A DNA stretch of 64,000 bases from Clostridia bacterium (GTDB lineage: Bacteria; Bacillota; Clostridia; Christensenellales; UBA3700): NCBI GenBank assembly GCA_036659935.1, contig JAVXBP010000001.1, positions 4,067-68,066 of the forward strand, written 5' to 3'. The translations under genes and the position numbers were made by a program. Shown piece by piece: positions 1-42,007 of this stretch; positions within the stretch are counted from its first letter, which is position 1; the number at the start of each line of letters is the position of its first letter. The notes under the pieces were generated by a model. The model made no database searches. It worked only from the letters and a program-made list of their open reading frames with translations, and was not told the DNA's origin.

Positions 1-806
1 GCGCGGTTGCGTTGGAAAAAGCTTATGAGAAATATCCCCGACCAAAGGCGATTGTCATTGTAAATTTGTATGGCAACCCTGCTGACTTTGAGCGCTTGCT
101 CGCGATTGCAAAGGCGCACGGCACTGCTGTGTTGGAAGATGCCGCGGAGAGTCTCGGCTCAAGATATAACGGAATTGCGACGGGCAGTTTTGGCGACGTG
201 TCGATTGTTTCTTTCAACGGCAACAAGATTATCACCACAAGCGGTGGCGGAATGGCGCTTGTAAATGACAAGAAAGCGCGCGACAAAATGCTGTTTTGGG
301 CGACGCAATCGCGCGAAAATTCGCTGTGGTATCAACACGAAGAAATTGGATATAATTATCGTTTGTCCAACATTTGCGCGGGCATTGGCAGGGGGCAACT
401 CACGGCGCTTGACTTGCGCGTGTGTCAAAAACGCAAAATTTTTCAAATTTATTGCGAAGAATTTGCAAACGTTGAGCAAATAAAAATGATTCCTGAGCCA
501 AAAAATTGTTTTTGCAATCATTGGCTGTCATTGATAACGCTGTCGAGAGAATGCAAAACTACATTTGTGGACATAATCAATGCGTTGGCGAAAGAAAATA
601 TCGAGAGCCGTCCTGCGTGGAAGCCTATGCATATGCAACCTGTGTATGCAAATTGCGACTTTTTCTCATCTCTCGACAAGGGGAGCGTGGCGCAAGACTT
701 GTTCGAGCGCAGTCTTTGCTTGCCAAGCGACACAAAAATGACGGAAAGCCAAGTTCGACTTGTGGCGGAAATTGTCAAGAAAACTATCGCGGAAAAAGAA
801 AAATAA
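1..806 (+). CDS. DegT/DnrJ/EryC1/StrS-family PLP-dependent sugar aminotransferase, C-terminal part (5' end outside window)
   Basis: Frame is open from the window edge. AVLEDAAESLGS...VSFNGNKIITTSGGGMAL matches the conserved PLP-lysine region of PglE/WecE-type sugar aminotransferases. Stop at 804-806. Confidence 0.85.
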   Translation, partial: AVALEKAYEKYPRPKAIVIVNLYGNPADFERLLAIAKAHGTAVLEDAAESLGSRYNGIATGSFGDVSIVSFNGNKIITTSGGGMALVNDKKARDKMLFWATQSRENSLWYQHEEIGYNYRLSNICAGIGRGQLTALDLRVCQKRKIFQIYCEEFANVEQIKMIPEPKNCFCNHWLSLITLSRECKTTFVDIINALAKENIESRPAWKPMHMQPVYANCDFFSSLDKGSVAQDLFERSLCLPSDTKMTESQVRLVAEIVKKTIAEKEK

Positions 807-826
807 AGCCAAAGCGGAAAAGGGGA

Positions 827-1537
827 ATGCATTTGTATAAGAAGTTGTGGAAAAGAATTTTCGATATAATTTTGAGCCTTGTTGGAATGATTGTGGTCAC
901 TCCTGCTTTCTTGATTTTGTTGCCGATTGTGGCGATTGCGATGCGTGGGAAGCCGTTTTTCTTGCAAACACGCGTTGGAAAAGGTGGAAAAAAATTTAAA
1001 ATTGTAAAATTGCGTACAATGACAAATGAGAAAGGCGCGGACGGAAAATTGTTGCCAGACAAAGAAAGATTGACGAAATTCGGTATGTTTTTGCGAAAAA
1101 CGTCAATCGACGAGTTGCCAGAAATGTGGAATATTCTCGTCGGGCAAATGAGCGTTGTTGGACCGCGACCGCTGTTGGAAGAATATTTGCCGCTGTATAG
1201 CGCCGTGCAAAATCGCCGTCACGAAATGCGTCCCGGTCTCACGGGGCTTGCGCAAGTGAGCGGAAGAAACGCGATTGGTTGGCAAGAAAAATTCGAAAAA
1301 GACGTGGAGTATGTTGACAATTGCTCATTGAAATTGGACGCAAAAATATTTTTTTTGACAATAAAAAAAGTTTGCAAAAGAGACGGAATCGCGCAATCGG
1401 GCGAGGCGACAATGGAATATTTTGTTGGAAATGGCAAAGACAAAATCGACAAAAATAATAATTCTTTTGACGACGAGCAAGGCGAAAAATTCCAAATAGT
1501 TGACGAAGAAAAAGCGAAAAATGACAAAAAAAGTTAG
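827..1537 (+). CDS. Small monotopic phosphoglycosyl transferase (bacterial sugar transferase, PglC/WbaP C-terminal type)
   Basis: ATG 827 follows a GGGG Shine-Dalgarno. The ORF-track start at 506 overlaps the upstream gene and is rejected. One N-terminal hydrophobic helix, then KPFFLQTRVG, KIVKLRTM, IDELPEMWNIL and VGPRP motifs. K/N/D-rich C-terminal tail. Confidence 0.9.
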   Translation: MHLYKKLWKRIFDIILSLVGMIVVTPAFLILLPIVAIAMRGKPFFLQTRVGKGGKKFKIVKLRTMTNEKGADGKLLPDKERLTKFGMFLRKTSIDELPEMWNILVGQMSVVGPRPLLEEYLPLYSAVQNRRHEMRPGLTGLAQVSGRNAIGWQEKFEKDVEYVDNCSLKLDAKIFFLTIKKVCKRDGIAQSGEATMEYFVGNGKDKIDKNNNSFDDEQGEKFQIVDEEKAKNDKKS

Positions 1538-1594
1538 CGTTCCAAATTGAAATAAAATATTGCAAAAATCAAAATCAGCAAAAGTGAGAAAAGT

Positions 1595-2563
1595 ATGCGA
1601 GAAATTAACATTTTGATAACAAGCGTTGGCAGACGAGTTGAGCTGGTCAAACTTTTTGCGCGCGCAAAATCAGCGCTTGGAGTAAGTGGCAAAATTGTGA
1701 CGGCTGATATTACAAAGACAGCGCCTGCGTTGCAATTTGGCGACGTCGCCTATATCATTCCGCGCATAAGCGACGAGAATTTTGTCCAAAGTTTGATTGA
1801 TATTTGCAACAAAGAAGACATCGCGTTGATTGTTCCGACGATTGATACCGAGCTGGAAAAGCTTGCGCAAAACAAGGAATTTATCGAAAGTCAAACGCGA
1901 GCGAAAGCGCTTGTAAGTTCGCCGCGCGTGATAGAAATTTGTAATGACAAAAGGAAAACGGCGCAATTTTTCGCTGAAAACAATTTTCTCACGCCAAGGA
2001 CTTTGACAAAATTTGACTTGCAAAAGGGGGACTACAATTTTCCACTTTTTGTAAAACCACTCAACGGAAGTAGCAGTCAAAACGCTTACAAAATTAACAA
2101 CGAAAATGAGTTGGAATTTTTCTCGGAATATGTGCCAAATGCGATAATTCAAGAGTGCGCGAGCGGAAAAGAATATACGATTGACGTTTTTGTCGACTTC
2201 GACGGGAATGTTGTGAGCGTTGTTCCGCGACAAAGATTGGCGACGCGCGCAGGCGAAATTCAAAAGGGCAAGATAGAAAAAAACGATTATTTGATAGCCG
2301 AAACAAAAAAAATGATTGCAAAACTCAAGCCGATTGGGCATATTACCGCGCAAGGTTTTCTGGGGCAAGACGGGGCTTTCCGCTTTATTGAGATAAATCC
2401 GCGCTTTGGCGGTGGCGCGCCGATGAGCATTTTGGCAGGGGCGGACAGTCCGCAATTCCTTTATCGACTTTTGCGCGGAGAAAAGTTGGAATATGTGGAA
2501 AACTTCCGCGACGGCGTTGTTTTTTCTCGCTTTGACGATTGTGTGGAAGTTGAAAATGATTGA
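1595..2563 (+). CDS. ATP-grasp domain ligase (carbamoyl-phosphate-synthase-like) of a polysaccharide locus
   Basis: 322 aa with INILITSVGRRVELVK, FVKPLNGSSSQ and IEINPRFGGG, typical of ATP-grasp enzymes. Sits between the sugar transferase and HAD genes. Confidence 0.8.
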   Translation: MREINILITSVGRRVELVKLFARAKSALGVSGKIVTADITKTAPALQFGDVAYIIPRISDENFVQSLIDICNKEDIALIVPTIDTELEKLAQNKEFIESQTRAKALVSSPRVIEICNDKRKTAQFFAENNFLTPRTLTKFDLQKGDYNFPLFVKPLNGSSSQNAYKINNENELEFFSEYVPNAIIQECASGKEYTIDVFVDFDGNVVSVVPRQRLATRAGEIQKGKIEKNDYLIAETKKMIAKLKPIGHITAQGFLGQDGAFRFIEINPRFGGGAPMSILAGADSPQFLYRLLRGEKLEYVENFRDGVVFSRFDDCVEVEND

Positions 2564-2622
2564 GGCGGTTGCGTTTGATAGCGTGGAAGTGGAAAATGAT
2601 TAAGGCGGTCGTGTTTGACTTG
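2543..2622. repeat. Imperfect 40-bp tandem duplication (2 copies) spanning the ATP-grasp stop / HAD start junction
   Basis: 2543-2582 and 2583-2622 align with 4 mismatches in the first 36 nt. Both copies contain GAAAATGATTRA (an ATG 5 nt before a stop). Confidence 0.9.
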
Positions 2623-3276
2623 GACGATACGTTGTTCCCAGAAATGCAATTTGTTGAGCAAGGTTTTGAATATGTGGCGCAAATTGTTGGCGAAAAATAT
2701 CATTTGCAAGGCGTATATCCAAGACTTTTGCAACTTTTCGAGCAAGACCACGCGAACGTTTACAACCGATTGTTGGACAGCTTTGGCATAAAATATTGCG
2801 AGAGTGATATCGCAGAACTTGCGCAAGAATATCGAAGTTGTGAGCGGACGAATTTGCAGTTTTATCCCGACACGATTGGCGTGTTGGAAGAATTGAGAAA
2901 ACACAATATTCGCATTGGAGTGATAACTGACGGCAGAATTGAGTGCCAAAAAAACAAAATTAGTTCGCTGGAAGTGGAAAAATATGTCGACTTTGTTGTG
3001 ATTACTGACAGCTTGGGCGGAGAAAAATTCCGCAAGCCACACCCGAAAGCGTTCGAGATTATGCGAGAAAAATTGCAAGTTGAGTTCAATGAGATGATCT
3101 ATGTCGGCGACAACCGCGCAAAAGACTTTGCGATTGGCGCGCTATATCCGATTGTTACTTGTGAGATTTCAAGAGCGGACAAATTGTATAGAAACAAAGA
3201 ATATTGCAATGGCATTTTGCCAAAAATAACAATCAAAACACTGTCGGAATTGTTGGAATATATAAGGAAAATGTAA
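2596..3276 (+). CDS. HAD-superfamily hydrolase
   Basis: Starts MIKAVVFDLDDTLF (HAD motif I DxDxT). Later GVITDG and YVGDNRAKDF motifs. The ORF-track start at 2560 lies in the duplicated junction and is rejected. Confidence 0.85.
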   Translation: MIKAVVFDLDDTLFPEMQFVEQGFEYVAQIVGEKYHLQGVYPRLLQLFEQDHANVYNRLLDSFGIKYCESDIAELAQEYRSCERTNLQFYPDTIGVLEELRKHNIRIGVITDGRIECQKNKISSLEVEKYVDFVVITDSLGGEKFRKPHPKAFEIMREKLQVEFNEMIYVGDNRAKDFAIGALYPIVTCEISRADKLYRNKEYCNGILPKITIKTLSELLEYIRKM

Positions 3277-3362
3277 TAAAAAAGATATTATACAAAAAGC
3301 AATCGAGCTGTTGAAATATATAATATTAAAAAAAACACTGTCGGAATTGTTGGAATATATTA
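3235..3362. repeat. Direct repeat: the last ~30 nt of the HAD gene are re-copied 97 bp downstream
   Basis: AAAACACTGTCGGAATTGTTGGAATATAT occurs at 3235-3263 and again, identical, at 3332-3360. Related TGTTG(G)AA(A)TAT words are near 3309 and 3380. Confidence 0.9.
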
Positions 3363-3413
3363 GAAAAAATTAAAAAAAGCTGTTGGAAAATAAAAGGAAA
3401 ATAAAAGGAAAAT

Positions 3414-4493
3414 ATGAAAATTTTGTTGATAGGGAATTCTCCTGCAGGAATGTTGCTTTTCCGAGAAGAACTGATAATGCAACTGAGAAAGGAAAATGAG
3501 ATTGCGATAATTTGTCCAAATGGCGACGAGCAACAAAATGCGCGATTGAGTGAGTTGGGCGAATTTTTCCCAGTGGAAATGGAAAGACGAGGAAAGAATG
3601 CACTGCAAGATATCAAGCTTGTGGCAGAATATAGGCGAATTGTCAAAAAGTTTGCGCCCGACAAGCTCATAACTTATACCGTCAAATGCAACATTTATGG
3701 CGGAATGGCTTGCCCACGAAGCGTTGAGTTTTTCCCGAATGTTACGGGGCTTGGAAGGTCATTCCAAGGCGGAGCGATGACGCGCCTTGTCACTTTTCTC
3801 TACAAAATATCCGTCAAAAAGAAAGCGAAAAAAGTATTTTTCGAGAACTGCGCCGACAAGGCAGTTTTTGTTGAGCGGAGCATTGTAAATCAAGAAAATG
3901 CAATCGTTTTGAATGGCGCTGGCGTAAATCTCGACAAGTTTGCTTACAAATCGTTGGAAAAAAATGAAGTTACAAAATTTGTTTTTGTAGGCAGAATTAT
4001 GCGAGAAAAGGGCGTTGACGAGCTTTTGTGGGCAATCGCCGAGATGAAAAAAATCAACGCGCAGGCGCAATTTGTTTTTCTTGGCGAAATGGAAGAAGAT
4101 TATCGACCGCAAATTGACGACTTTGTCGCGCGCGGCTGGCTTGAATGGCGTGGAATGGTCGCGAATGTCGCGGAAGTTCTCTGGCAAAGCGATTGCTTGG
4201 TGTTGCCAAGTTATCACGAAGGAATGAGCAATGCAATTCTTGAGGCATGCAGCTGTGGGCGAGCCGTTATCGCCAGCGATATAAATGGTTGCAAAGAAGG
4301 AGTAATTGACGGGGAAAGTGGCTTTGTGTGCAAGGTTCAAGACAAAAAAAGTCTCTTTGATTGCTTGATGAAATTTGTCAATTTGAGTTGGCAAGAAAAA
4401 TCAAATTTTGGAAAAAATGGTCGCGCGCTTGTCGAAGAAAAATTCGACAAACAAAAAGTCGTGCAGGCGACAATCAAAGAATTGTTCGAGTAA
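3414..4493 (+). CDS. GT4-family (GT-B, group 1) glycosyltransferase
   Basis: 359 aa. C-terminal LPSYHEGMSNAILEACSCGRAVIASDINGCKEGVIDGESGF matches the EX7E region of group-1 glycosyltransferases. Confidence 0.9.
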   Translation: MKILLIGNSPAGMLLFREELIMQLRKENEIAIICPNGDEQQNARLSELGEFFPVEMERRGKNALQDIKLVAEYRRIVKKFAPDKLITYTVKCNIYGGMACPRSVEFFPNVTGLGRSFQGGAMTRLVTFLYKISVKKKAKKVFFENCADKAVFVERSIVNQENAIVLNGAGVNLDKFAYKSLEKNEVTKFVFVGRIMREKGVDELLWAIAEMKKINAQAQFVFLGEMEEDYRPQIDDFVARGWLEWRGMVANVAEVLWQSDCLVLPSYHEGMSNAILEACSCGRAVIASDINGCKEGVIDGESGFVCKVQDKKSLFDCLMKFVNLSWQEKSNFGKNGRALVEEKFDKQKVVQATIKELFE

Positions 4494-4765
4494 AAAAATT
4501 CCGCGAGCAAAAATGCAAGTTGCAAAAATTTGAAAAGAAAACGAAAAGTCGCAAAGTAAAAAAGAAAGAAGTAGAAAAGCCACGAGATAAAAAAGTTAAA
4601 AAAAGATGTCTTTTAAATGCGTTTTGAGTTGTTGCAAAACAAAAGTGGTCGCATTGAAAAAAATTGCAAATTTGTAACAAAATTATATTATTAGGTAATT
4701 TCTCTTAAATCATAGTTATATTTGCGGTGTGTTCACAATCTTATATTACAACGCTCTCATTCTTG

Positions 4766-4794
4766 TTGACATAAGAAAACAAAAAGAATATAAT
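4766..4794 (+). promoter_or_regulatory. Consensus sigma-A-type promoter (TTGACA-17 nt-TATAAT) for the MATE gene
   Basis: TTGACA at 4766-4771, a 17-nt spacer, TATAAT at 4789-4794. A 7-bp hairpin (AACAAGG 4804-4810 / CCTTGTT 4816-4822) follows at the predicted 5' end of the transcript. Confidence 0.7.
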
Positions 4795-4836
4795 AACTTC
4801 GTCAACAAGGAAACCCCTTGTTAACAAGGATAAATT

Positions 4837-6387
4837 ATGTTGAAAAGTCGCGCCCTAAAAGCCGATATGGATATGTGTTCTCGTCCATTATTCGGCAAAA
4901 TAATTTTGTTTTCGCTTCCGCTTGTGTTCACAGGAATTTTGCAATTGCTGTACAACGCCGCGGATATTATTGTCGTTGGAAGATTTGCCGACAGCAACGC
5001 TATGGCGGCGGTTGGCTCGACCGGCGCGCTTGTCAACTTGGTGATAAATTTGTTTATTGGCTTGTCGGTGGGCGCTCTTGCCGCGATGGCGCAAGCGATT
5101 GGCTCGCGCGACGAAAAGGCTGCGGAAAAAATTGTACATACCGCCATTCTTGTCAGCGTAATTGGCGGAGTTATTGTCGGCATTTTTGGCTATTTTATGA
5201 CGGAAACATTTTTGCGTTGGATGAAAACTCCAGAAGATATTTTGCCGCTTTCGGCTATTTATCTCAAGATATTTTTTGTTGGAATGCCAGCGAATTTGTT
5301 GTATAACTTTGGCGCGTCAATTTTGCGCGCGTGTGGCGACACAAAAAACCCTTTGATATTTTTGACACTGTCGGGGCTTGTCAATGTCGCGCTTAATCTT
5401 GTTTTTGTAATAGTTTTCAAAATGAGCGTCGCTGGCGTTGCGTGGGCGACAATCATTGCGCAAGCGATATCGGCGGTGTTGGTTGTCATTTGTCTCTCAA
5501 GGCGCAAAGGCTTTGGCAAGTTGACAATCAAGCGATTGAGAATCGACAAAGGAGCGCTGTTGAAAATTATGCGCATTGGTTTGCCGGCGGGCATTCAAAG
5601 CACAATATTTTCTTTTTCCAACGTCATTATTCAATCAGCAATCAACTCAATGGGCAACGCCGCAATGGCAGGAAGCGCCGCCTCGGCAAGCATAGAAGGC
5701 TTTGTATACACGTCGATGAACGCTGTCTCGCAAGCTGCTTTGACATTTACCGGGCAAAATTATGGCGCGAACAAACGCAAAAATTGTTCGATTGTATTGG
5801 TTCAAACTATGGCGATTACGACTGTGCTTGGGCTTGTGATGGGCGTCTCGTCATATCTTGCCGCGCCGTGGCTGCTCAAAGTCTACAACACCGACCCAGA
5901 AGTCATCAAGTTTGGCGTTCAACGGCTGTTGGTCATTGGCACGACATACTTTACGTGCGGACTTATGGAAGTTTTGGTGGGCTCGTTGCGTGGCATTGGC
6001 TTGTCTTTTACGCCAATGTTTGTGTCAATTGTGGGCGTGTGCGGAGTAAGAATTTTGTGGATATATACTGTTTTTGCCGCGACGCACAATCTTATCGCGC
6101 TCTATCTTTCTTATCCTGTTTCTTGGGTCATAACGGTGATTATACATTTTGTAACGTTGCTTATCGCGCGCAATAAGGCGTTCGCAAGGTTGGAAAAAAA
6201 CAAGGGAAACAAGGATAATAATGACAAAAATAACAAAAATGACAACAAAGACAACTTTGTCACACAAAATTCTGGCGATGGACAGCGTGGCTCTGTGAAG
6301 TTGTGGGACAACAATGACAACAAGGACAACAAAGACAACTTTGTCACACAAAATTCTGTCGAAGGGCAACAAACGAGCGGAATATAA
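4837..6387 (+). CDS. MATE-family efflux transporter with an N/D/K-rich ~70-aa C-terminal tail
   Basis: 516 aa. N-terminus LFSLPLVFTGILQLLYNAADIIVVGRF and 12 hydrophobic segments are typical of MATE (NorM/DinF-like). AAGGA Shine-Dalgarno 7 nt upstream of the ATG. Confidence 0.9.
   Translation: MLKSRALKADMDMCSRPLFGKIILFSLPLVFTGILQLLYNAADIIVVGRFADSNAMAAVGSTGALVNLVINLFIGLSVGALAAMAQAIGSRDEKAAEKIVHTAILVSVIGGVIVGIFGYFMTETFLRWMKTPEDILPLSAIYLKIFFVGMPANLLYNFGASILRACGDTKNPLIFLTLSGLVNVALNLVFVIVFKMSVAGVAWATIIAQAISAVLVVICLSRRKGFGKLTIKRLRIDKGALLKIMRIGLPAGIQSTIFSFSNVIIQSAINSMGNAAMAGSAASASIEGFVYTSMNAVSQAALTFTGQNYGANKRKNCSIVLVQTMAITTVLGLVMGVSSYLAAPWLLKVYNTDPEVIKFGVQRLLVIGTTYFTCGLMEVLVGSLRGIGLSFTPMFVSIVGVCGVRILWIYTVFAATHNLIALYLSYPVSWVITVIIHFVTLLIARNKAFARLEKNKGNKDNNDKNNKNDNKDNFVTQNSGDGQRGSVKLWDNNDNKDNKDNFVTQNSVEGQQTSGI
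6241..6358 (+). repeat. Perfect 34-bp direct repeat (period 84 bp, in frame) inside the MATE C-terminal tail
   Basis: GACAACAAAGACAACTTTGTCACACAAAATTCTG at 6241-6274 and 6325-6358. Encodes DNKDNFVTQNS twice. Confidence 0.95.
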
Positions 6388-6427: not shown

Positions 6428-6458
6428 GACGGCGGAGAGAAATCTTTGCCGTTTTTTG
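6428..6458 (+). terminator. Weak candidate rho-independent terminator after the MATE gene
   Basis: Short stem GACGGC / GCCGTT followed by a TTTTTT run. The stem is only 5-6 bp. Confidence 0.4.
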
Positions 6459-6513
6459 CGTGATTGGGACATTTGTTGAGATTGGCGCGCATATACTGAT
6501 TGCGAGGTGAAAT

Positions 6514-7662
6514 ATGAGAGATAACAAAAACGCTAACTGTCGAGAGGACAGTTTTGATTGCCTATGCGCAAATGAATTTGATAATAACGCAAGCAATTGT
6601 CCCACAGAAAACGAGTGTTGTTGCGCGGACAAGGTGAGTTGCGCAAGTGTAAATGATATAATTGAGTCGGTTGCGTTGGAGCAAACTGGCATATCGCACA
6701 TTCTCAACACAGAAGGCGAAAAGTTGCAAAAACTTTTGCAAGGCTCGCCCACAGTCAACGAAATGCTTGCCGCCAACAATTCCGTGCGCGCTACTGTCGA
6801 ACAAATCACAATGTTGGAGATTGTTCTGCTCAACAAGCTCAAGGCGGTTGTAAATCTTCCGTGCGAAGACGCCACCACGGGGAGCGTCAGAGTGTGTGTG
6901 AAATGTTGCAAAAGCAACTTGCCGTTGTGTGGAATTTTTGTGGCTATTTTGGACGAAAAAGGCGTTGTGATTGCATCTGGCGACACGAACAAGCAGGGGG
7001 CGTATACCGCCAATTGCATACCTTTTGGCAAGTATGTTGTGGAACTTATCTATCCTTGCACGGGCGAAAAAATCACGCAAGAAATAGAGTTGACTTGCAA
7101 AAAAACAAGCGCCTATGTCGCAAAATGTTTCGAATGCGAGGCGCAATGCCACACAATCGAAGTGAGTGTCGTTGATTGTAATTCTTCCGCGCCACAATGC
7201 GGCAACAAAGTTGTAATTCTTGATTGCGCCAACGCGCAGGTTGACAGCGGAGCGACAAATTGCGATGGCAAATTTGTGTCCAAATGTCTCAAAGTCGGCA
7301 AGTATACCGTCGAAGCTTATGACTGTTCTCAACTTGTCAAAAAGTCAGCCGTGGTTACTGTCCAAGAAGAAAGTTGCGTCGAAAAGGTAGAATTTTGTTT
7401 TGGCGGAAGCGCAAAGAAAATCTCTGTTTGCGGAGTTGTTACGGATAGAAATCAAAAGCCACTTGCCAACGCGTGCGTGCAAATCAACGCCAACGGACAA
7501 GAAATTGTCAAAACCGATTGCAATGGCAATTATTGTGTAAGCAATATCAGCGTGATTGACAAGTTTTCCATTTTTGCAAGTTGCAATGGCTGTTTCTCGG
7601 CGATGCGCACAGTAAATTGCATTACAATGACAAATTATGTGATAAATCTTGTCGTGAAATAG
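6514..7662 (+). CDS. Cysteine-rich hypothetical protein: Cys-rich N-terminus, helical LE..G.SHI.N.EGEK.Q module, three Cys-laden beta-sandwich-like repeats. No signal peptide.
   Basis: 382 aa with 34 Cys by my count. GAGGTGA Shine-Dalgarno upstream of the ATG. Three repeats of the pattern hydrophobic-strand...G.Y...GKY.VE resemble CarboxypepD_reg / Cna-B-like folds. Residues 48-113 are paralogous to the next gene. Confidence 0.8.
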   Translation: MRDNKNANCREDSFDCLCANEFDNNASNCPTENECCCADKVSCASVNDIIESVALEQTGISHILNTEGEKLQKLLQGSPTVNEMLAANNSVRATVEQITMLEIVLLNKLKAVVNLPCEDATTGSVRVCVKCCKSNLPLCGIFVAILDEKGVVIASGDTNKQGAYTANCIPFGKYVVELIYPCTGEKITQEIELTCKKTSAYVAKCFECEAQCHTIEVSVVDCNSSAPQCGNKVVILDCANAQVDSGATNCDGKFVSKCLKVGKYTVEAYDCSQLVKKSAVVTVQEESCVEKVEFCFGGSAKKISVCGVVTDRNQKPLANACVQINANGQEIVKTDCNGNYCVSNISVIDKFSIFASCNGCFSAMRTVNCITMTNYVINLVVK

Positions 7663-7746
7663 TCGCGAAAGTGTAAACATTTTTGCAATCGAACATATTA
7701 TGTAAGGAAGGAAAAATCCTTTAATTTATTTATGAGGTGACGATAT

Positions 7747-8019
7747 ATGTCAATGCCAGTAATTATCCCAAGCACAACAACAAGAGAACAAGCAATAACC
7801 GACCTTATTGAGTCAGTTGCGCTCGAAGAGACAGGCTTGTCTCACATTATCAATGCGGAGGGCGAAAAAATTCAAGCGGTTGTCAAAGTTGCAAACGTTA
7901 CGCCTGCTCAATTGTTGGAAGTTAACAAATCAGTGCAGGACATGATCAAAGCTATCACAAGCCTAGAAATGGTGTTGGAAAATAAGCTTGACTTGTTCAG
8001 TCCATCGTTGAACGCATAG
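7747..8019 (+). CDS. Small hypothetical protein (90 aa) made up almost entirely of the same helical module as residues 48-113 of the upstream gene
   Basis: DLIESVALEETGLSHIINAEGEKIQ...NKSVQDMIKAITSLEMVLENKL aligns with DIIESVALEQTGISHILNTEGEKLQ...NNSVRATVEQITMLEIVLLNKL. GAGGTGA Shine-Dalgarno. No Cys. Confidence 0.75.
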   Translation: MSMPVIIPSTTTREQAITDLIESVALEETGLSHIINAEGEKIQAVVKVANVTPAQLLEVNKSVQDMIKAITSLEMVLENKLDLFSPSLNA

Positions 8020-8066
8020 GAAAAATTTGGAAATGACTACATAGGGCGTTTCCGCGAAAAAAAGAA

Positions 8067-8102
8067 AAACTACTTTGCCTTGCGGGGCAGAGTAGTTTTT
8101 TG
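8067..8102. terminator. Rho-independent terminator, bidirectional in form
   Basis: 13-bp stem AAACTACTTTGCC / GGCAGAGTAGTTT (one G-U pair), 6-nt loop, A-run before and T-run after. Confidence 0.85.
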
Positions 8103-8292
8103 TTGTAAAGTCGTGTTTTTCCAAAATGCAAAAGTGGTTTCTGGCTGTCTACACTTTGGAAAAGTTGCTTTTGTTGTTGCAAATTTTATTTTCCAAGGCG
8201 CAAGAATTTTTCTCAGCTGTCAACGCTTTTGGAAAGTTGTTGTTGAGATAATTTTCTCAACAATCAAATGTTGCCGACTGGAAAGTCACTTT

Positions 8293-25418: not shown

Positions 25419-25688
25419 TTATATGTTGTGCGGTTCAAGAAAAGTGACGAATTTTAGATTGAAAATGTCACAAACAATATATTGACGATTGCGCGCTTGA
25501 TAGAGCACAAGATATTTTTCGCCGACATCGTGCAAGATGCCAGCCTTTGTCACAACGGTATTTGTGCCGACAAGAAAGTCGCACGATATGTAATTGCCGA
25601 CGTTGAGAGAAAGCAGCCGTTGCATTGAGCCGTCGAATGCCTGACCTGACAGGTCGTCGTGAGGGATATCAAGATTTTCGTTTGCCAT
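25419..25688 (-). CDS. gerQ: GerQ-like spore coat protein
   Basis: 89 aa. LLSLNVGNYISCDFLVG...KAGILHDVGEKYLVLYQ...IVCDIFNLKFVTF mirrors the C-terminal domain pattern of Bacillus GerQ. AGGAGG Shine-Dalgarno. Immediately downstream of a CwlJ-type gene, as in Bacillus. Confidence 0.55.
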   Translation of the reverse strand: MANENLDIPHDDLSGQAFDGSMQRLLSLNVGNYISCDFLVGTNTVVTKAGILHDVGEKYLVLYQARNRQYIVCDIFNLKFVTFLEPHNI

Positions 25689-25726: not shown

Positions 25727-26155
25727 TTATGTATTTGGATAAGAAGAAGTCGGGTTGTAGAAGCAATGGTCGCCAATTCTGATAGCGAAATAGCCGTTTT
25801 TGTTGGGGAAATTTGTCTTGCAAACCTTGGAAAAAGGATTAAAATACCACAAAGAATTGGAGACTATCGGCAACACGCCCCCGTCAAGCGCCCACTGCGC
25901 GATATCATAATGTTCTTGTTCGGCGGGGAGATTGAAAATATTTTGCGGATTGTATTTTGTGCCAAAATATTCGCGCGCGCAGTCAAATTGATAGGGCGCG
26001 TAAATGACGTTGCGCAAGGTGTTGAACCTGCCATATTCGCCTGTGTCCTCTCGCACTCGGTTCATAATCACTGTCGCGACGGCGCGCATTCCGTCCTCTC
26101 CTTCGCCGCCTGCTTCGCATCTCAAAATTCTTGCCAACAATTCCAAATCGCTCAT
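25727..26155 (-). CDS. cwlJ: CwlJ/SleB-family spore cortex-lytic cell-wall hydrolase
   Basis: True start MSDLELLARILRCEAGGEGEDGMRAVATVIMNRV at 26155 (Hydrolase_2 signature). ORF-track extension into the upstream repeats rejected. Confidence 0.8.
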   Translation of the reverse strand: MSDLELLARILRCEAGGEGEDGMRAVATVIMNRVREDTGEYGRFNTLRNVIYAPYQFDCAREYFGTKYNPQNIFNLPAEQEHYDIAQWALDGGVLPIVSNSLWYFNPFSKVCKTNFPNKNGYFAIRIGDHCFYNPTSSYPNT

Positions 26156-26229
26156 TTTGCTACCTCGCTTACAATATATGTTTGCCGATTGCAAAAGGCT
26201 ACTTGTCGCAAAAAACTGTCCGTCACAAA

Positions 26230-26396
26230 AGGTCGCTTTCCACTTATTGTCGGTGAAATTTTGAGAAAGTCGAGCGTGTTGTGATAGGTCGCTTTTCAGT
26301 TGTGTCGGTAACATTTTGAAAAAGTCGAGTGTGTTGTGACAGGTCGCTTTCCGCTTATTGTTGACTGCATTTTGAGAAAGTCGCGCGCACGATGAT
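26230..26396. repeat. Three tandem copies of a ~56-bp unit upstream of cwlJ
   Basis: Units at 26230-26285, 26286-26340 and 26341-26396 all begin AGGTCGCTTT and share ATTTTGA(G/A)AAAGTCG. About 80% identity. Confidence 0.9.
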
Positions 26397-28279: not shown

Positions 28280-29779
28280 TCAATCAAAGATATTGTTCAT
28301 TGCGCGCAACAGTGAACGCTCGTGTGAGTATGGCAAATCGCAATTGTAATGCCAAATCATCATTCCGCCGAGCCCAGAGTCATAAGCAAACGCAGTCTTA
28401 TCTTGTATCATATTTACGCCGTTGTACCACCTTGCTTTTACAAGGAAAGTGTTGCCGTCATAGTCTGTTGTGACAAATTCCGACGCGATATAGTTGGAAA
28501 ATTCGCTCATATTTTGATATTCGCCAGACCAACCTCCCCAGAAAGCGCCATAGTCGACAGGGCGAGAATAGAAAGGCACGCCAAGGTCGAGTTTTTCTTT
28601 TGGAAAGCCTTTTTTGATCATATAATCAATTGCGTCAGTGCAAGCGAGTTTCCAGCCTGAGTGGTTGCCTCTTTTGTCCATAAGGTCATAAGCCATAACC
28701 TCGAACATATCGACCGCCTCGATTGCTTTTTTCGAATATTTTATGCCCCAAGGCGCGACAGCGATTGAGATAAGTTTGTTTGGAATTGCACCCTTGAGCG
28801 CAATCAAAAAGTCGCCGTATGTCGTGTAATCGTCTTGTGTGTATGGATATTCATAGTCGAAAGAAAGCCCGTCAATTGGCAGTTCGTCAAGGCATTTGGA
28901 AAGGTTCGCAATAAAGTTCGCTCGGTTGTCCTTGAACGCTATTTTTTGAACGCTTGCAAAAAACTTTTCGTTGGAAAGTCCGCTCGTGTTTTTGAGTGTG
29001 TTGTTGGGCATAAAGTTTACAAAAAGTCGTGGCATTTTTTCTCCGCAAGTCGCCTTGATGATTGCGATTGCTTTGTCGAGAGTCTCGCGACCTTGAGTGA
29101 TAAGCAAGCCTTTGTCGTCATAAGTCGGTTTGCCGTCTTTGTCATAAATCGCATTGCCGAGAGCAATGTCGCCTTTTTCGCTGTAAATCGCCTGTCCAAA
29201 AAGAATTACGTCAGTGACGTGGCGCAGTCCTTCTGTGTCAACCTTGCCGTCAACAAATTCGTTGACAGGAATGTAGGTTGTTATGCGGAAGTCTTTTTGC
29301 GGACGTTGAGTGTTGTAAAGCTCGAATTTGTCAATTGTAAATTTTTGCTTGCCAACAGAAAACGCGCGAATTGTCATTTCTTTGACTTTGATATTGTCAA
29401 TATAACAAAAACGCAAACCGTTTATTTCGTCTTGTTTGTACAACAATTTTTGTTCGGTCTTGTCTGGCTCGCCGTTTTCGCCTTTTTTGACAACAGGTAT
29501 CCAAACCTCGAAGGCGCTCACCGAGCTTGTCTTTTCGCGCAAGACAATTGTGTTAATTTCCTTTTCTTCTGGCAAGACAACAGTGACTTGCGATGACTTG
29601 TTGGTCAACTTGAAGTCTTTTGAAGTTTTGTCTTTTGAATAGTTGAAAGTTGCATTTGCAGCCAAGTTTTCGCCGTCTGGGCGAGTCGATTGAATCTTCG
29701 AGCAACCGACAAACAGTGTCGAAAGCATCGTTGTCGCCAAAACCAGCAACAATGACAGTGTGATAAGTTTTTTTCTCAT
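28280..29779 (-). CDS. GH18-family glycoside hydrolase lipoprotein with an N-terminal discoidin/CBM32-like domain
   Basis: Lipobox LFVGCS. PIDGLSFDYEYP corresponds to the GH18 DGxDxDxE catalytic strand, with Ser replacing the middle Asp. AAGGGGTGG Shine-Dalgarno. Confidence 0.8.
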   Translation of the reverse strand: MRKKLITLSLLLVLATTMLSTLFVGCSKIQSTRPDGENLAANATFNYSKDKTSKDFKLTNKSSQVTVVLPEEKEINTIVLREKTSSVSAFEVWIPVVKKGENGEPDKTEQKLLYKQDEINGLRFCYIDNIKVKEMTIRAFSVGKQKFTIDKFELYNTQRPQKDFRITTYIPVNEFVDGKVDTEGLRHVTDVILFGQAIYSEKGDIALGNAIYDKDGKPTYDDKGLLITQGRETLDKAIAIIKATCGEKMPRLFVNFMPNNTLKNTSGLSNEKFFASVQKIAFKDNRANFIANLSKCLDELPIDGLSFDYEYPYTQDDYTTYGDFLIALKGAIPNKLISIAVAPWGIKYSKKAIEAVDMFEVMAYDLMDKRGNHSGWKLACTDAIDYMIKKGFPKEKLDLGVPFYSRPVDYGAFWGGWSGEYQNMSEFSNYIASEFVTTDYDGNTFLVKARWYNGVNMIQDKTAFAYDSGLGGMMIWHYNCDLPYSHERSLLRAMNNIFD

Positions 29780-29901: not shown

Positions 29902-30211
29902 AGAACATTAAACTTTGGAGAAAAAATGAGCCACTTGATTGAACTTTGCAATTAAGATATGGCGAAATGGTCAAAAAAAATTAGAGAGTAACAATATAAT
30001 AGAAAAAATAAAATTGTCGAAAAAAAATTAAAAGTTGGCGCTTTGTTGCTCAAAAGGTTTATTTTATGCTCAAAATGTGCTATAATTGCCAGAGAATAAA
30101 AAAAGGTAATGAAGTTTTGGTCTAAATTCGTTCTTTGTGGCGGTATTAAAATATGCTTCGATAACACAATGTTACAATTCGCAGGGTAAAAGTTCATAGG
30201 AAAAGTCAAAA

Positions 30212-31600
30212 ATGTTAGAAAAGCAATTTGTCACTCTCCCAACAAAAAAGATATTTTTTAAATTGGCCGTGCCAAACGTGTTGAGCATGGTGTTTTCTTC
30301 CATATATATGATGGCGGACGGCATTTTTGTCGGGCGATTTATTGGTGGAAACGCGCTCGCCGCGGTCAGCCTTGTTATGCCTATTGTAACAATTATTTTC
30401 GCGCTGTCCAACATGATAGCGATTGGCTCGTCGGTCAAAGTTTCGACGGCGCTTGGCGAAGGCAACACTCAAAAAGCGAAAGAAATATTTACGGCGAGTG
30501 TTTTGACGATTGTCGGCATTGGCGCGGTATTTTCGTTGATTGGGATATTTTTTGCAAAGACGATAATTTTTGCGGTTATTCAAGACGACATTCTCGCCGA
30601 TTTGGCGTATAGATATATCGAATATTTTATTTATGGCTTGCCGTTTATTATGCCTATGTTCGCGATGGACAACTTTTTGCGCGCGTGCGGAAAGGCAAAA
30701 TATAATATGACGGTCAACATTTTTGTGTCAATTCTCAATATTTTTCTTGACTGGCTGTTTATCGCTTATCTTGGCTATGGCATTGAGTTCTCGGCGATTT
30801 CGTCGGTTGGAAGCATTTTGATTGGGACAATTTTTTCGTTCGCTCCGTTTTTTGGCAAAAAAATGGCGTTGCATTTTACAAAACCAAAGATTTCGTTGCG
30901 CGAGGCGTGGGGCATAGTTTACAACGGAAGTTCGGAATTTTTGAGCAGTATTTCCAACGCTTTTATGGCGACGGTCATCAATATTATGTTGCTCAATCTT
31001 GGCGGGTCGGTCGCGGTGGCGAGCTATGGCATTGTAATGTATATCGACGTTTTGTTGATTGGCGCGCTCTATGGAGTCCTTGATTCCGTTCAACCAGTGG
31101 TGAGCTACAACGTGGGCGCAAAAGAGATAAAACGCGCCTTTTCGTTTTTCCGAATTACGTGCGTTGCAACGGCTGTTTTGTCGGGTGTGTGCATGGCGGT
31201 GATTATGATTTTCCCGCAAGCGCTCGCAAGCATTTTTGCAAAGGATAACAATGCCGAGATTATCAAAATGACCACGTCGGCTTTGCTGCTTTTCGCGCCG
31301 TCTTATCTTTTCACTTGGTTCAATATGAGCGCCAGCGCGTTTTTGACGGCGATTGACAAGCCGAAAGAATCAATGATAATTATGCTTTTCCGCACAGTTT
31401 CACCATTCGTTTGCGTGTTTGCGCTGTCGTCTTTTATGGGAGTCTATGGAGTGTATTTTACGGCGACCGTGGCTGGCGCGTTGACGGTGATTGTCTCAAT
31501 CGTCATCTCGATAAACGCAAAACGCAAGTTGAAAAAACAATGTGTTCCTGCCGTCCAAGCGGTCGAGTTGCAAGAGAAAGCGACAGAAAATTATAATTGA
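30212..31600 (+). CDS. MATE-family efflux transporter
   Basis: 462 aa. FKLAVPNVLSMVFSSIYMMADGIFVGRFIG and 12 hydrophobic segments. Confidence 0.9.
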   Translation: MLEKQFVTLPTKKIFFKLAVPNVLSMVFSSIYMMADGIFVGRFIGGNALAAVSLVMPIVTIIFALSNMIAIGSSVKVSTALGEGNTQKAKEIFTASVLTIVGIGAVFSLIGIFFAKTIIFAVIQDDILADLAYRYIEYFIYGLPFIMPMFAMDNFLRACGKAKYNMTVNIFVSILNIFLDWLFIAYLGYGIEFSAISSVGSILIGTIFSFAPFFGKKMALHFTKPKISLREAWGIVYNGSSEFLSSISNAFMATVINIMLLNLGGSVAVASYGIVMYIDVLLIGALYGVLDSVQPVVSYNVGAKEIKRAFSFFRITCVATAVLSGVCMAVIMIFPQALASIFAKDNNAEIIKMTTSALLLFAPSYLFTWFNMSASAFLTAIDKPKESMIIMLFRTVSPFVCVFALSSFMGVYGVYFTATVAGALTVIVSIVISINAKRKLKKQCVPAVQAVELQEKATENYN

Positions 31601-41482: not shown

Positions 41483-42007
41483 TTAGTCTTGGACAAACTC
41501 GTTCCACAGTTCGACAATCTTTGACTTGTAGACGACTTTTTCGCCTTCGCCGTCCGCGACAAAGCACAGCGGTGGAAAGACCACGCACCACCAATTGTCG
41601 CCAGTTCCACTGCCGAGCTCCAAGATAAGCGCGTCATAGACACCGCTTGACAAGGTCAGCTCGCCATAACTGCGCGTCGGGAACTTTTCTTGGCAAAGTT
41701 TCGCGTGGCTCGTGTAATCAAAGCCGTTGGCGGAAAGCGTCGCGTTGGCGGTTTTTTCTATCTCGCTCAAGTTGGCGTTGACAATCGCGAAAGCTTGCGC
41801 TTTTGATTGCGCGCCAGACAGTCTCGGAGAAAGCATCTCAACAATGCTTTCTTTTACTTTATATTTGACATTTTGGTCGATATCGTCGTTGCTGTTGGCG
41901 CGAATATGTATTCTGATATAGTCAGCCTTGGGCGGTTGATATTGCGCGGCGATTGCGCCGATTGAGCAAATTATCAAAAGGAAAGAAATTACTGCAAATT
42001 TTTTCAT
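41483..42007 (-). CDS. spoIIR: Stage II sporulation protein R
   Basis: True start MKKFAVISFLLII at 42007 after AAGGAG. DYIRIHIRANSNDDIDQNVKYKVKE and WWCVVFPPLCF are SpoIIR hallmarks. Confidence 0.9.
   Translation of the reverse strand: MKKFAVISFLLIICSIGAIAAQYQPPKADYIRIHIRANSNDDIDQNVKYKVKESIVEMLSPRLSGAQSKAQAFAIVNANLSEIEKTANATLSANGFDYTSHAKLCQEKFPTRSYGELTLSSGVYDALILELGSGTGDNWWCVVFPPLCFVADGEGEKVVYKSKIVELWNEFVQD

Follow-up and report, generated by a model that had tools for sequence, protein, structure and literature searches.

A clostridial pair of A_ENA-family proteins, one single-domain and one cysteine-rich, as a candidate endospore-appendage locus

We describe two adjacent genes in a 64-kilobase (kb) stretch of an uncultured Clostridia genome (contig JAVXBP010000001.1; hereafter the window, in whose positions all coordinates are given), one for a cysteine-rich protein of 382 amino acids (aa; 6514..7662, +) and one for a cysteine-free protein of 90 aa (7747..8019, +), called here the large and the small protein. 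We are highly confident that both belong to the A_ENA family, and the pair is a clostridial member of a known spore-appendage family rather than a new kind of protein. Homology, fold, conservation of bond residues, promoter motif and conserved synteny are directly supported by the data. The small protein is probably the major subunit of a fibre, and the large one probably an accessory subunit (anchor, cross-linker or tip) that lacks the N-terminal latch of the family. On balance we lean towards reading the whole as a clostridial A-ENA-type endospore-appendage locus in which the large protein acts as anchor or cross-linker. The two open reading frames (ORFs) lie on the same strand with a gap of 84 nucleotides (nt); an earlier note on this DNA, made from the letters alone, had given their coordinates and sizes, the 34 Cys of the large protein and the absence of Cys from the small one correctly.

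Membership in the A_ENA family

The two proteins share a module, aligned between residues 45-109 of the large protein and 16-81 of the small one (50% identity over 66 residues, BLASTP E-value (E) 7e-18), a similarity far above chance level. As had been noticed earlier, this shared part is Cys-free in the large protein (0 Cys in residues 45-113). A six-frame scan of the 64-kb window found no third copy. In sequence searches of the Protein Data Bank (PDB) the sole clear match of the module is chain A of 9IHH ("Ex vivo spore-silk A-ENA fibers"), which phmmer finds with the small protein at E 3.1e-15 (residues 2-82) and with the large protein at E 3.8e-8 (residues 44-114); a profile of 50 clostridial homologues again matches 9IHH_A only, at E 2.7e-23. 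The precomputed Pfam annotation of the large and small proteins and of all their relatives is PF26595, A_ENA. The paper that founded the family (Sleutel, Sogues & Remaut, Nat Commun 2026; PMC13111695) set its inclusion threshold at hmmsearch E<=1e-7. The module, which the earlier note could place in no named family, thus has both a name and a solved structure. The Pfam, NCBIfam and PHROGs releases that we scanned hold no model of the module and returned only noise for it, and the Pfam scan gave no match at E<=1 to DUF3992 (S-/L-ENA) or DUF4183 (F-ENA).

A-ENA itself, from Bacillus thuringiensis sv. israelensis, has 101 aa, divided into a 13-residue N-terminal lock, the latch, and an alpha-helical hairpin. 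Its hairpins stack into a two-protofilament cross-alpha fibre, which self-assembles in E. coli without helper proteins and is self-crosslinked by intermolecular isopeptide bonds of five types, all induced by proximity (PMC13111695). Clostridia and Bacillales have homologues of two kinds, single-domain genes and passenger fusions (SdrD_B/OmcB among them), that are often clustered, and in the founding system the module-only protein of ~100 aa is the major self-assembling subunit, with proteins that join the module to a passenger as minor accessory parts (PMC13111695). In a full HMMER scan our module profile matches 2,582 clusters (50% identity) at E<=1e-3, of which 1,428 also reach E<=1e-10; most of the matches are from metagenome-assembled genomes of Clostridia and annotated as hypothetical. 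The sequence motif, which the earlier note had recognised in unannotated proteins of spore-forming Firmicutes, thus does recur widely.

Fold, bond residues and promoter of the small protein

Modelled with AlphaFold2 from a 50-sequence alignment, the small protein (predicted local distance difference test, pLDDT, 87) has an extended tail at residues 1-12 followed by helices 13-47 and 53-88. The structure prediction that had been proposed as a check on the module therefore yields a helical hairpin, and Foldseek against the PDB returns 9IHH_A as its first and only match with E<=0.001 (E 5e-4, template modelling score, TM, 0.71, 43% identity). The protein begins MSMPVIIPS, with the latch at residues 2-12. 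Latch residues M3, P4 and I6 show no substitution in 50 homologues. Of 119 single-domain homologues, 113 have Ser or Gly at residue 2 (98 start with MSMP and 13 with MGMP); as both residues are small, removal of Met1 is allowed.

We mapped the bond residues from their published positions onto the alignment, so that it is the residues that are assessed and the bonds themselves only by homology. In A-ENA numbering these are N-terminus-Q44/E41 for type 1, K42-N64/E39 for type 2, K84-E29/E28 for type 3, K77-E78 for type 4 and K76-Q82/E86 for type 5 (PMC13111695). The small protein holds the residues of type 1 (Ser2 amine, Gln43, Glu40), type 2 (Lys41, Asn60, Glu38) and type 3 (Lys80, Glu28, Glu27). 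E38, E40, K41, Q43, N60 and K80 are 100% conserved across the 119 single-domain homologues, and these six core bond residues all fall within the 21 invariant columns of 90 (hypergeometric p 9e-5). The position of A-ENA K77 is Leu in both window proteins and in 117 of the 119 homologues; that of K76 is occupied by Ser in the small protein, by Met in the large one and mostly by Arg in the homologues. The small protein is a straightforward A_ENA member, from a clostridial subfamily that keeps three of the five bond types. A separate observation concerns the other end of the domain: 20 of the 119 single-domain homologues (for example P0018, P0032, P0076, P0101, P0122 and the gene at 1316-1594 of locus L001) end in a C-x-I-C type motif (CEIC, CDIC, CNIC and others) just after helix 2, which may replace the lost inter-protofilament isopeptide bond by a disulfide.

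Set beside A-ENA and A-ENA1 (Q8KNV8/Q8KNV7, 9IHH), the small protein aligns end to end at ~43% identity; it agrees with them in its fold of latch and hairpin and in its M-(G/S)-M-P start, and its bond and catalyst residues of types 1-3 are identical. The settings share a sigma-K-type promoter motif, a spore-forming host and a second module-bearing gene nearby. The differences lie both in the locus and in the protein. A-ENA and A-ENA1 are encoded on a toxin plasmid, whereas the window pair is a chromosomal locus with no amidase gene between its two genes, and its partner gene encodes a 382-aa Cys-rich fusion instead of a second single-domain paralogue. The small protein has a loop shorter by 3-4 residues and a shorter C-terminal tail, and like nearly the whole clostridial subfamily it lacks the donor lysines of types 4 and 5, with Leu73 and Ser72 in their place.

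The small gene has its own predicted sigma-K-type promoter at 7673..7705 (+), with the -35 AC at 7677-7678, a 15-nt spacer and the -10 CATATTATG at 7694-7702. Scanned with a matrix built from orthologous upstream regions from which the window had been left out, this site is the top match in the whole window on both strands (score 19.3), and it lies 42 nt before the ATG. The pattern AC-N15-18-CATAnnnT is present in 49 of 82 upstream regions of single-domain orthologues, versus 3.6+-1.8 (maximum 9) in shuffles, at sites centred 44-62 nt before the start codon with the consensus tgTcACAttt ... CATAtaATA. Judged by known Bacillus subtilis promoters, we take this consensus to be the sigma-K pattern. 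It also resembles the SigK site published for the promoter of the israelensis a-ena gene, whose reporter is active only in sporulating cells (PMC13111695). The large gene has a Shine-Dalgarno sequence GAGGTG (6504-6509, +) and, at 6465..6501 (+), a weak and uncertain promoter-like site of mother-cell type (AC at 6469-6470, CATATACT at 6490-6497, 19-nt spacer), which scores 7.5 in the matrix with spacers of 15-18 nt and 16.5 only if a 19-nt spacer is allowed. Elsewhere in the window, the second-best sigma-K-type match (30144-30176, -, score 19.2) stands upstream of an 81-aa ORF and a GH18 lipoprotein gene (28280-29779, -), with a further match at 30698-30730 (-).

The two genes form a unit whose 5' edge is marked by a terminator-like hairpin with a T-run after the upstream MATE gene (6428..6460, +) and which is closed by an intrinsic terminator, a 17-bp stem followed by a U-rich tail (8064..8107, +; -34.2 kcal/mol, z -5.5, with an equally good fold in 0 of 200 shuffles). 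The window also encodes SpoIIR (41483-42007, -; E 3e-42) and a CwlJ/SleB-type Hydrolase_2 protein (25727-26314, -), from which we conclude that the host forms endospores. These two genes sustain the sporulation context that the earlier note had drawn from spoIIR and cwlJ-gerQ, except for GerQ: the 89-aa ORF downstream of the hydrolase gene (25419-25688, -) has no Pfam match at E<=1e-4.

We regard it as very improbable that the module marks a helical-hairpin family of vegetative cells or mobile elements that shares with A-ENA its fold only. Helical hairpins are simple folds, and a few carrier genomes bear labels of non-spore-forming groups: A_ENA loci with Cys-rich partners occur in metagenome-assembled genomes labelled Muribaculaceae (L019, L042, L056) and Mycoplasmatota (L029), probably through mis-binning or mislabelling. 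The module also matches the thiopeptide precursor family Thiopep_pre (E 0.11), DUF1664 and a phage regulator family (E 0.2), but all of these are far under curated cut-offs, while the A-ENA match reaches E 2.7e-23 with 43% identity over the whole length, catalytic residues included. The sigma-K-type promoter is moreover conserved across orthologues, and the neighbouring genes are of chromosomal housekeeping type, with no mobile elements among them. The spore-surface direction of the earlier proposal is supported by A-ENA homology and the sigma-K-type promoter; its claim of novelty is not, since the A_ENA domain already has a Pfam entry and has been solved by cryo-EM.

The cysteine-rich large protein and its relatives

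The large protein has 34 Cys (8.9%, versus 1.8% in 20 other window proteins), distributed as 8 in residues 1-44, none in 45-113 and 26 in 114-382. Its AlphaFold2 model (pLDDT 74) is disordered over residues 1-42 (pLDDT <50), continues with helices 43-76 and 81-113 and ends in three beta-sandwiches at residues 122-206, 213-296 and 301-376. The gene accordingly divides into three parts: a segment for the disordered residues 1-44, with 8 Cys (CLC, CCC), in place of the N-terminal lock (6514..6645, +); the Cys-free A_ENA helical hairpin of residues 45-113 (6646..6852, +); and three Cys-rich beta-sandwiches of CarboxypepD_reg/SdrD_B/SpaA type (6877..7641, +). The beta-sandwich-like repeats that had been read from the sequence are confirmed by Pfam, which places CarboxypepD_reg in three stretches of the C-terminal two-thirds (E 6.5e-17; also SdrD_B, SpaA and bMG3), and by the AlphaFold2 sandwiches, whose Foldseek matches are TIE, BcpA, SpaA, SpaC and SdrD. 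A signal peptide is absent, as claimed earlier: neither N-terminus is hydrophobic, and the large protein opens with the hydrophilic MRDNKNANCRED. Its C-terminus, ...TNYVINLVVK, carries no LPXTG sorting signal. The latch is also absent, the profile match beginning at position 14 of 90. The hairpin nevertheless keeps the residues of type 2 (K70/N88/E67) and type 3 (K108/Q57/E56) and the latch-acceptor pair Q72/E69. A strain variant with 99% identity, P0001, has Trp for Cys222 (VVDCNSS to VVDWNSS; window 7177-7179) and one Val-to-Ile change, and genome L083 encodes a 384-aa version; the Trp variant implies that an individual Cys is dispensable, which fits surface cysteines better than a fixed disulfide scaffold.

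High Cys content, the lack of a signal peptide and a spore-forming host are features that the large protein has in common with CotY, CotZ, ExsY and CdeC, and on such grounds the earlier note saw in it a coat or exosporium building block, with the small protein as possible assembly partner or cap. In such a model no fibre would form; no clostridial fibre of the A-ENA family is reported in PMC13111695, which also speaks for that idea. We think it improbable. The likeness to CotY, CotZ and CdeC goes no further than Cys content: the large protein has no detectable homology to any coat or exosporium family at E<=1 (Pfam, NCBIfam), and it consists of a hairpin and three sandwiches instead. The module common to the pair is a homologue of a protein that needs no partners to assemble into fibres, and the invariant latch and isopeptide residues of the small proteins are hard to explain for a mere cap. 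The strong dedicated promoter, too, belongs to the small gene and not to the large one. The roles that had been assigned to the two proteins are most likely inverted, as the precedent of the founding system and a small gene with its own strong promoter and terminator indicate.

We compared 81 loci, the window and 80 genome loci, counting modules within +-6 kb. The sources include Oscillospiraceae, Lachnospiraceae, Anaerovorax and Erysipelotrichaceae and the cultured Clostridium collagenovorans, Longibaculum muris and Pygmaiobacter massiliensis. The loci contain 177 modules, with at least 2 in 63 loci, and the modules fall into four classes. Two classes have the latch: single-domain proteins account for 83 modules, and proteins that carry passengers C-terminally for 13. 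In the two classes without it, the module stands either at the C-terminus of a large, Cys-poor, adhesin-like protein (39 modules) or in a Cys-rich protein (40 modules; >5% Cys, up to 65 Cys). The pairing whose co-occurrence the earlier note had wanted mapped does recur, since Cys-rich genes are present in 21 of the 36 loci with full flanks, and in about half of the 81 loci they adjoin a single-domain gene. Their median distance to an A_ENA gene of the single-domain or latch-bearing kind is 118 nt (40 cases). A sigma-K-type site precedes 25 of 42 Cys-rich genes, versus 4% of random segments. By identity the hairpin of the large protein is set apart from no class of fusions (mean 48-53% to every class); it has the GEKLQK motif and a one-residue loop deletion in common with the Cys-rich class, and it retains the Glu at the type-3 catalyst position that is mostly lost there.

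Most Cys-rich genes encode a conserved N-terminal domain of ~230 aa without a Pfam match. In L010, L017, L024, L036, L069 and ~30 other loci we observed a recurrent unannotated Cys-rich family of ~330-370 aa and 20-65 Cys in which this domain (FDG..FYLT, ICYD..E.CFWA, IYKL) is followed by a Cys-rich linker and a latch-less A_ENA hairpin; its genes usually diverge from a single-domain A_ENA gene within ~120 nt. One member is the 347-aa ORF of L017 (-) that adjoins the single-domain gene at 6001-6264. In the window protein the hairpin is instead close to the N-terminus, a rarer layout found in few relatives: P0001, P0002 (48% identity), P0003 (35%) and the proteins of L001 and L002. The gene order in L001 and L002 is that of the window, the Cys-rich hairpin gene standing directly 5' of the single-domain gene. 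Across these close relatives the latch-less hairpin and its Cys-rich flanks are constant and the sandwiches vary, numbering 0 in L001, 1 in L002 and 3 in the window protein. In L001, the locus of the closest relative, the 200-aa N-terminal domain of the Cys-rich family forms a separate ORF (77-688, +) directly 5' of the 128-aa Cys-rich hairpin protein (831-1217, +), an arrangement in which the Cys-rich partner seems to be split or not yet fused.

The sandwiches invite a different assignment within the same A-ENA fibre, in which the large protein would form the distal tip or act as a surface adhesin, much as the collagen/C1q 'ruffle' does, with its hairpin docked at the fibre end, its sandwiches binding other spores, the host or a substrate, and its cysteines only stabilising the domains. 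Published A-ENA fusions comprise the 'ruffles' and A-BclA, with passengers of collagen/C1q, SdrD_B/OmcB and 4Fe-4S-like classes, and such fusions, SdrD_B among them, have been read as tip fibrillae (PMC13111695). The large protein agrees with them in joining the hairpin to a passenger (SdrD_B and related prealbumin-like folds) in a gene beside a single-domain A_ENA gene, and its sandwiches resemble Gram-positive pilus and adhesin domains (TIE, BcpA, SpaA, SpaC and SdrD by fold, SdrD_B and SpaA by Pfam). The likeness to sortase pilins and MSCRAMM B-repeats is confined to the fold of the three C-terminal domains, as the large protein has neither signal peptide nor LPXTG and stands in a spore-appendage locus. 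We consider the tip assignment somewhat unlikely, though a serious rival. The fusions modelled in PMC13111695 keep the N-terminal A-ENA domain, latch included, with its conserved bond residues, and 13 other fusions in our set of loci keep the latch as well, but here a 44-residue segment with 8 Cys replaces it and the passengers are exceptionally Cys-rich. Since sandwich copies range from 0 to 3 in close relatives while the Cys-rich flanks of the hairpin stay, the flanks and not the sandwiches appear to be the conserved functional part, and a separate Cys-poor adhesin-like fusion, present in many loci, would suit the tip better. The large protein fits the published category of fusions; its loss of the latch and its extreme Cys content are absent from the main text of PMC13111695, in which cysteines and disulfides go unmentioned.

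Proposed assembly and surroundings of the pair

In the anchor or cross-linker reading that we favour, the mother cell would make the small protein in bulk late in sporulation, from the gene's own sigma-K-type promoter. Removal of Met1 would expose a free Ser2 amine on its 12-residue latch, and by homology with B. thuringiensis A-ENA the hairpins would stack into cross-alpha protofilaments. Stacking would bring together three catalytic triads and so form intermolecular isopeptide bonds without an enzyme, joining Ser2-N to Gln43 (catalyst Glu40), Lys41 to Asn60 (Glu38) and Lys80 to Glu28 (Glu27). Lacking the lysines of types 4 and 5, each subunit would have ~6 bonds and not 10. The large protein would be a minor subunit: because its hairpin keeps the triads of types 2 and 3 and the latch acceptor, it could be locked covalently into or onto the fibre, accepting a neighbour's latch but donating none. 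After mother-cell lysis and oxidation, its 8-Cys N-terminus and its sandwiches would tie the fibre by disulfides to Cys-rich outer layers of the spore or to other fibres. Fibre formation, isopeptide bonds, stoichiometry and the anchor role are all inferred here.

We prefer an anchor or cross-linker to other accessory roles because the Cys flanks are the part conserved among relatives, because many loci hold the separate adhesin-like fusion mentioned above, and because anchors of other spore appendages, such as F-Anchor-3, are also fusions of a subunit-like domain with spacers and a module for surface integration. F-Anchor and F-Anchor-3 of the F-ENA system combine a copy of the subunit domain, beta-sandwich spacers and a spore-surface module, are encoded beside the major subunit and have been proposed to nucleate and tether the fibre (PMC12357932). 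The analogy is functional and not evolutionary, as the F-ENA subunit has an unrelated fold (DUF4183 beta-barrel) and its anchors attach by an exosporium leader bound to ExsF or by a CsxA-like domain, not by Cys-rich segments. The S-ENA and L-ENA appendages of the Bacillus cereus group (DUF3992; Ena1A/B/C, Ena3A) are likewise made in the mother cell without a secretion signal, and their disordered N-terminal connectors, with Cys motifs such as CC, form intermolecular disulfides, in which they resemble the large protein. Unlike the present system, they are beta-jellyroll proteins without sequence similarity to it and are held together by disulfides only, whereas here the core of the fibre would be isopeptide-linked and the accessory protein alone is Cys-rich.

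Several points weigh against this reading. Fibre formation is extrapolated from ~43% identity to A-ENA. The donor lysines of types 4 and 5 are lost, and because type 5 is the only covalent link from protofilament to protofilament, the quaternary structure may differ. Recombinant A-ENA1 fibres without types 1 and 5, which have six bonds per subunit, are nearly isomorphous and equally stable (PMC13111695), so the loss of types 4 and 5 is no argument against fibre formation; it is a difference of the subfamily and no ground for exclusion from A-ENA. For the large gene, the matrix with spacers of 15-18 nt establishes no canonical sigma-K site. Cys positions are only partly conserved among the three repeats, so that no disulfide map can be derived from them, and the variability of the cysteines seems to fit surface residues and is no proof of disulfide crosslinking. 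Finally, donor and acceptor residues are kept in all module classes, which leaves the polarity of the fibre unreadable and the roles of anchor, tip and lateral decoration inseparable by this means.

More tentatively, and with less than even confidence, we suggest that Clostridia have a distinct form of A-ENA: a fibre with three types of isopeptide bond, in which the protofilaments are not covalently linked, together with a dedicated latch-less Cys-rich partner, encoded alongside, that is captured covalently through its hairpin and tied by disulfides to Cys-rich outer layers of the spore. The partner would be the long-sought element of attachment or cross-linking, and a single appendage would unite two orthogonal self-crosslinking chemistries. 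If this is true, the window protein, with its N-proximal hairpin and three Cys-studded sandwiches, is a rare layout of an anchor class. Few known protein polymers are chemically as robust as A-ENA fibres, which have been studied only in one plasmid system of B. thuringiensis, where they glue spores to toxin crystals. The A_ENA family is abundant in anaerobic Clostridia, and many carrier genomes come from groups typical of gut communities; because the carrier Clostridia have no toxin crystals, the fibre must serve another purpose there, for example spore attachment, clumping or transmission. How fibres are fixed to spores is left open by PMC13111695; a concrete candidate for this task is the Cys-rich partner without a latch that recurs among the loci. 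Cultured carriers are Clostridium collagenovorans DSM 3089 (L024), Longibaculum muris DSM 29487 (L036), Pygmaiobacter massiliensis (L071) and Flavonifractor sp. (L063). The products of the two genes, so far "hypothetical" and "carboxypeptidase-like regulatory domain protein", can be renamed A_ENA-family spore appendage proteins. The value of the locus is that it points to a clostridial branch, as yet unexplored, of a family that is itself very recent, and that it offers a candidate attachment subunit.

The pair is flanked by a MATE transporter gene, a convergent GDSL hydrolase gene, pstSCAB and an upstream glycosyltransferase cluster, and no functional link of these neighbours to the pair is supportable. 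The cluster directly upstream (506-6387, +) is of polysaccharide type, with a Bac_transf sugar transferase, an ATP-grasp enzyme, a HAD hydrolase and a GT1 glycosyltransferase, and it ends in a MATE-family protein whose C-terminal ~70 residues are Asn/Asp/Lys-rich and contain a repeated DNKDNFVTQNS unit.

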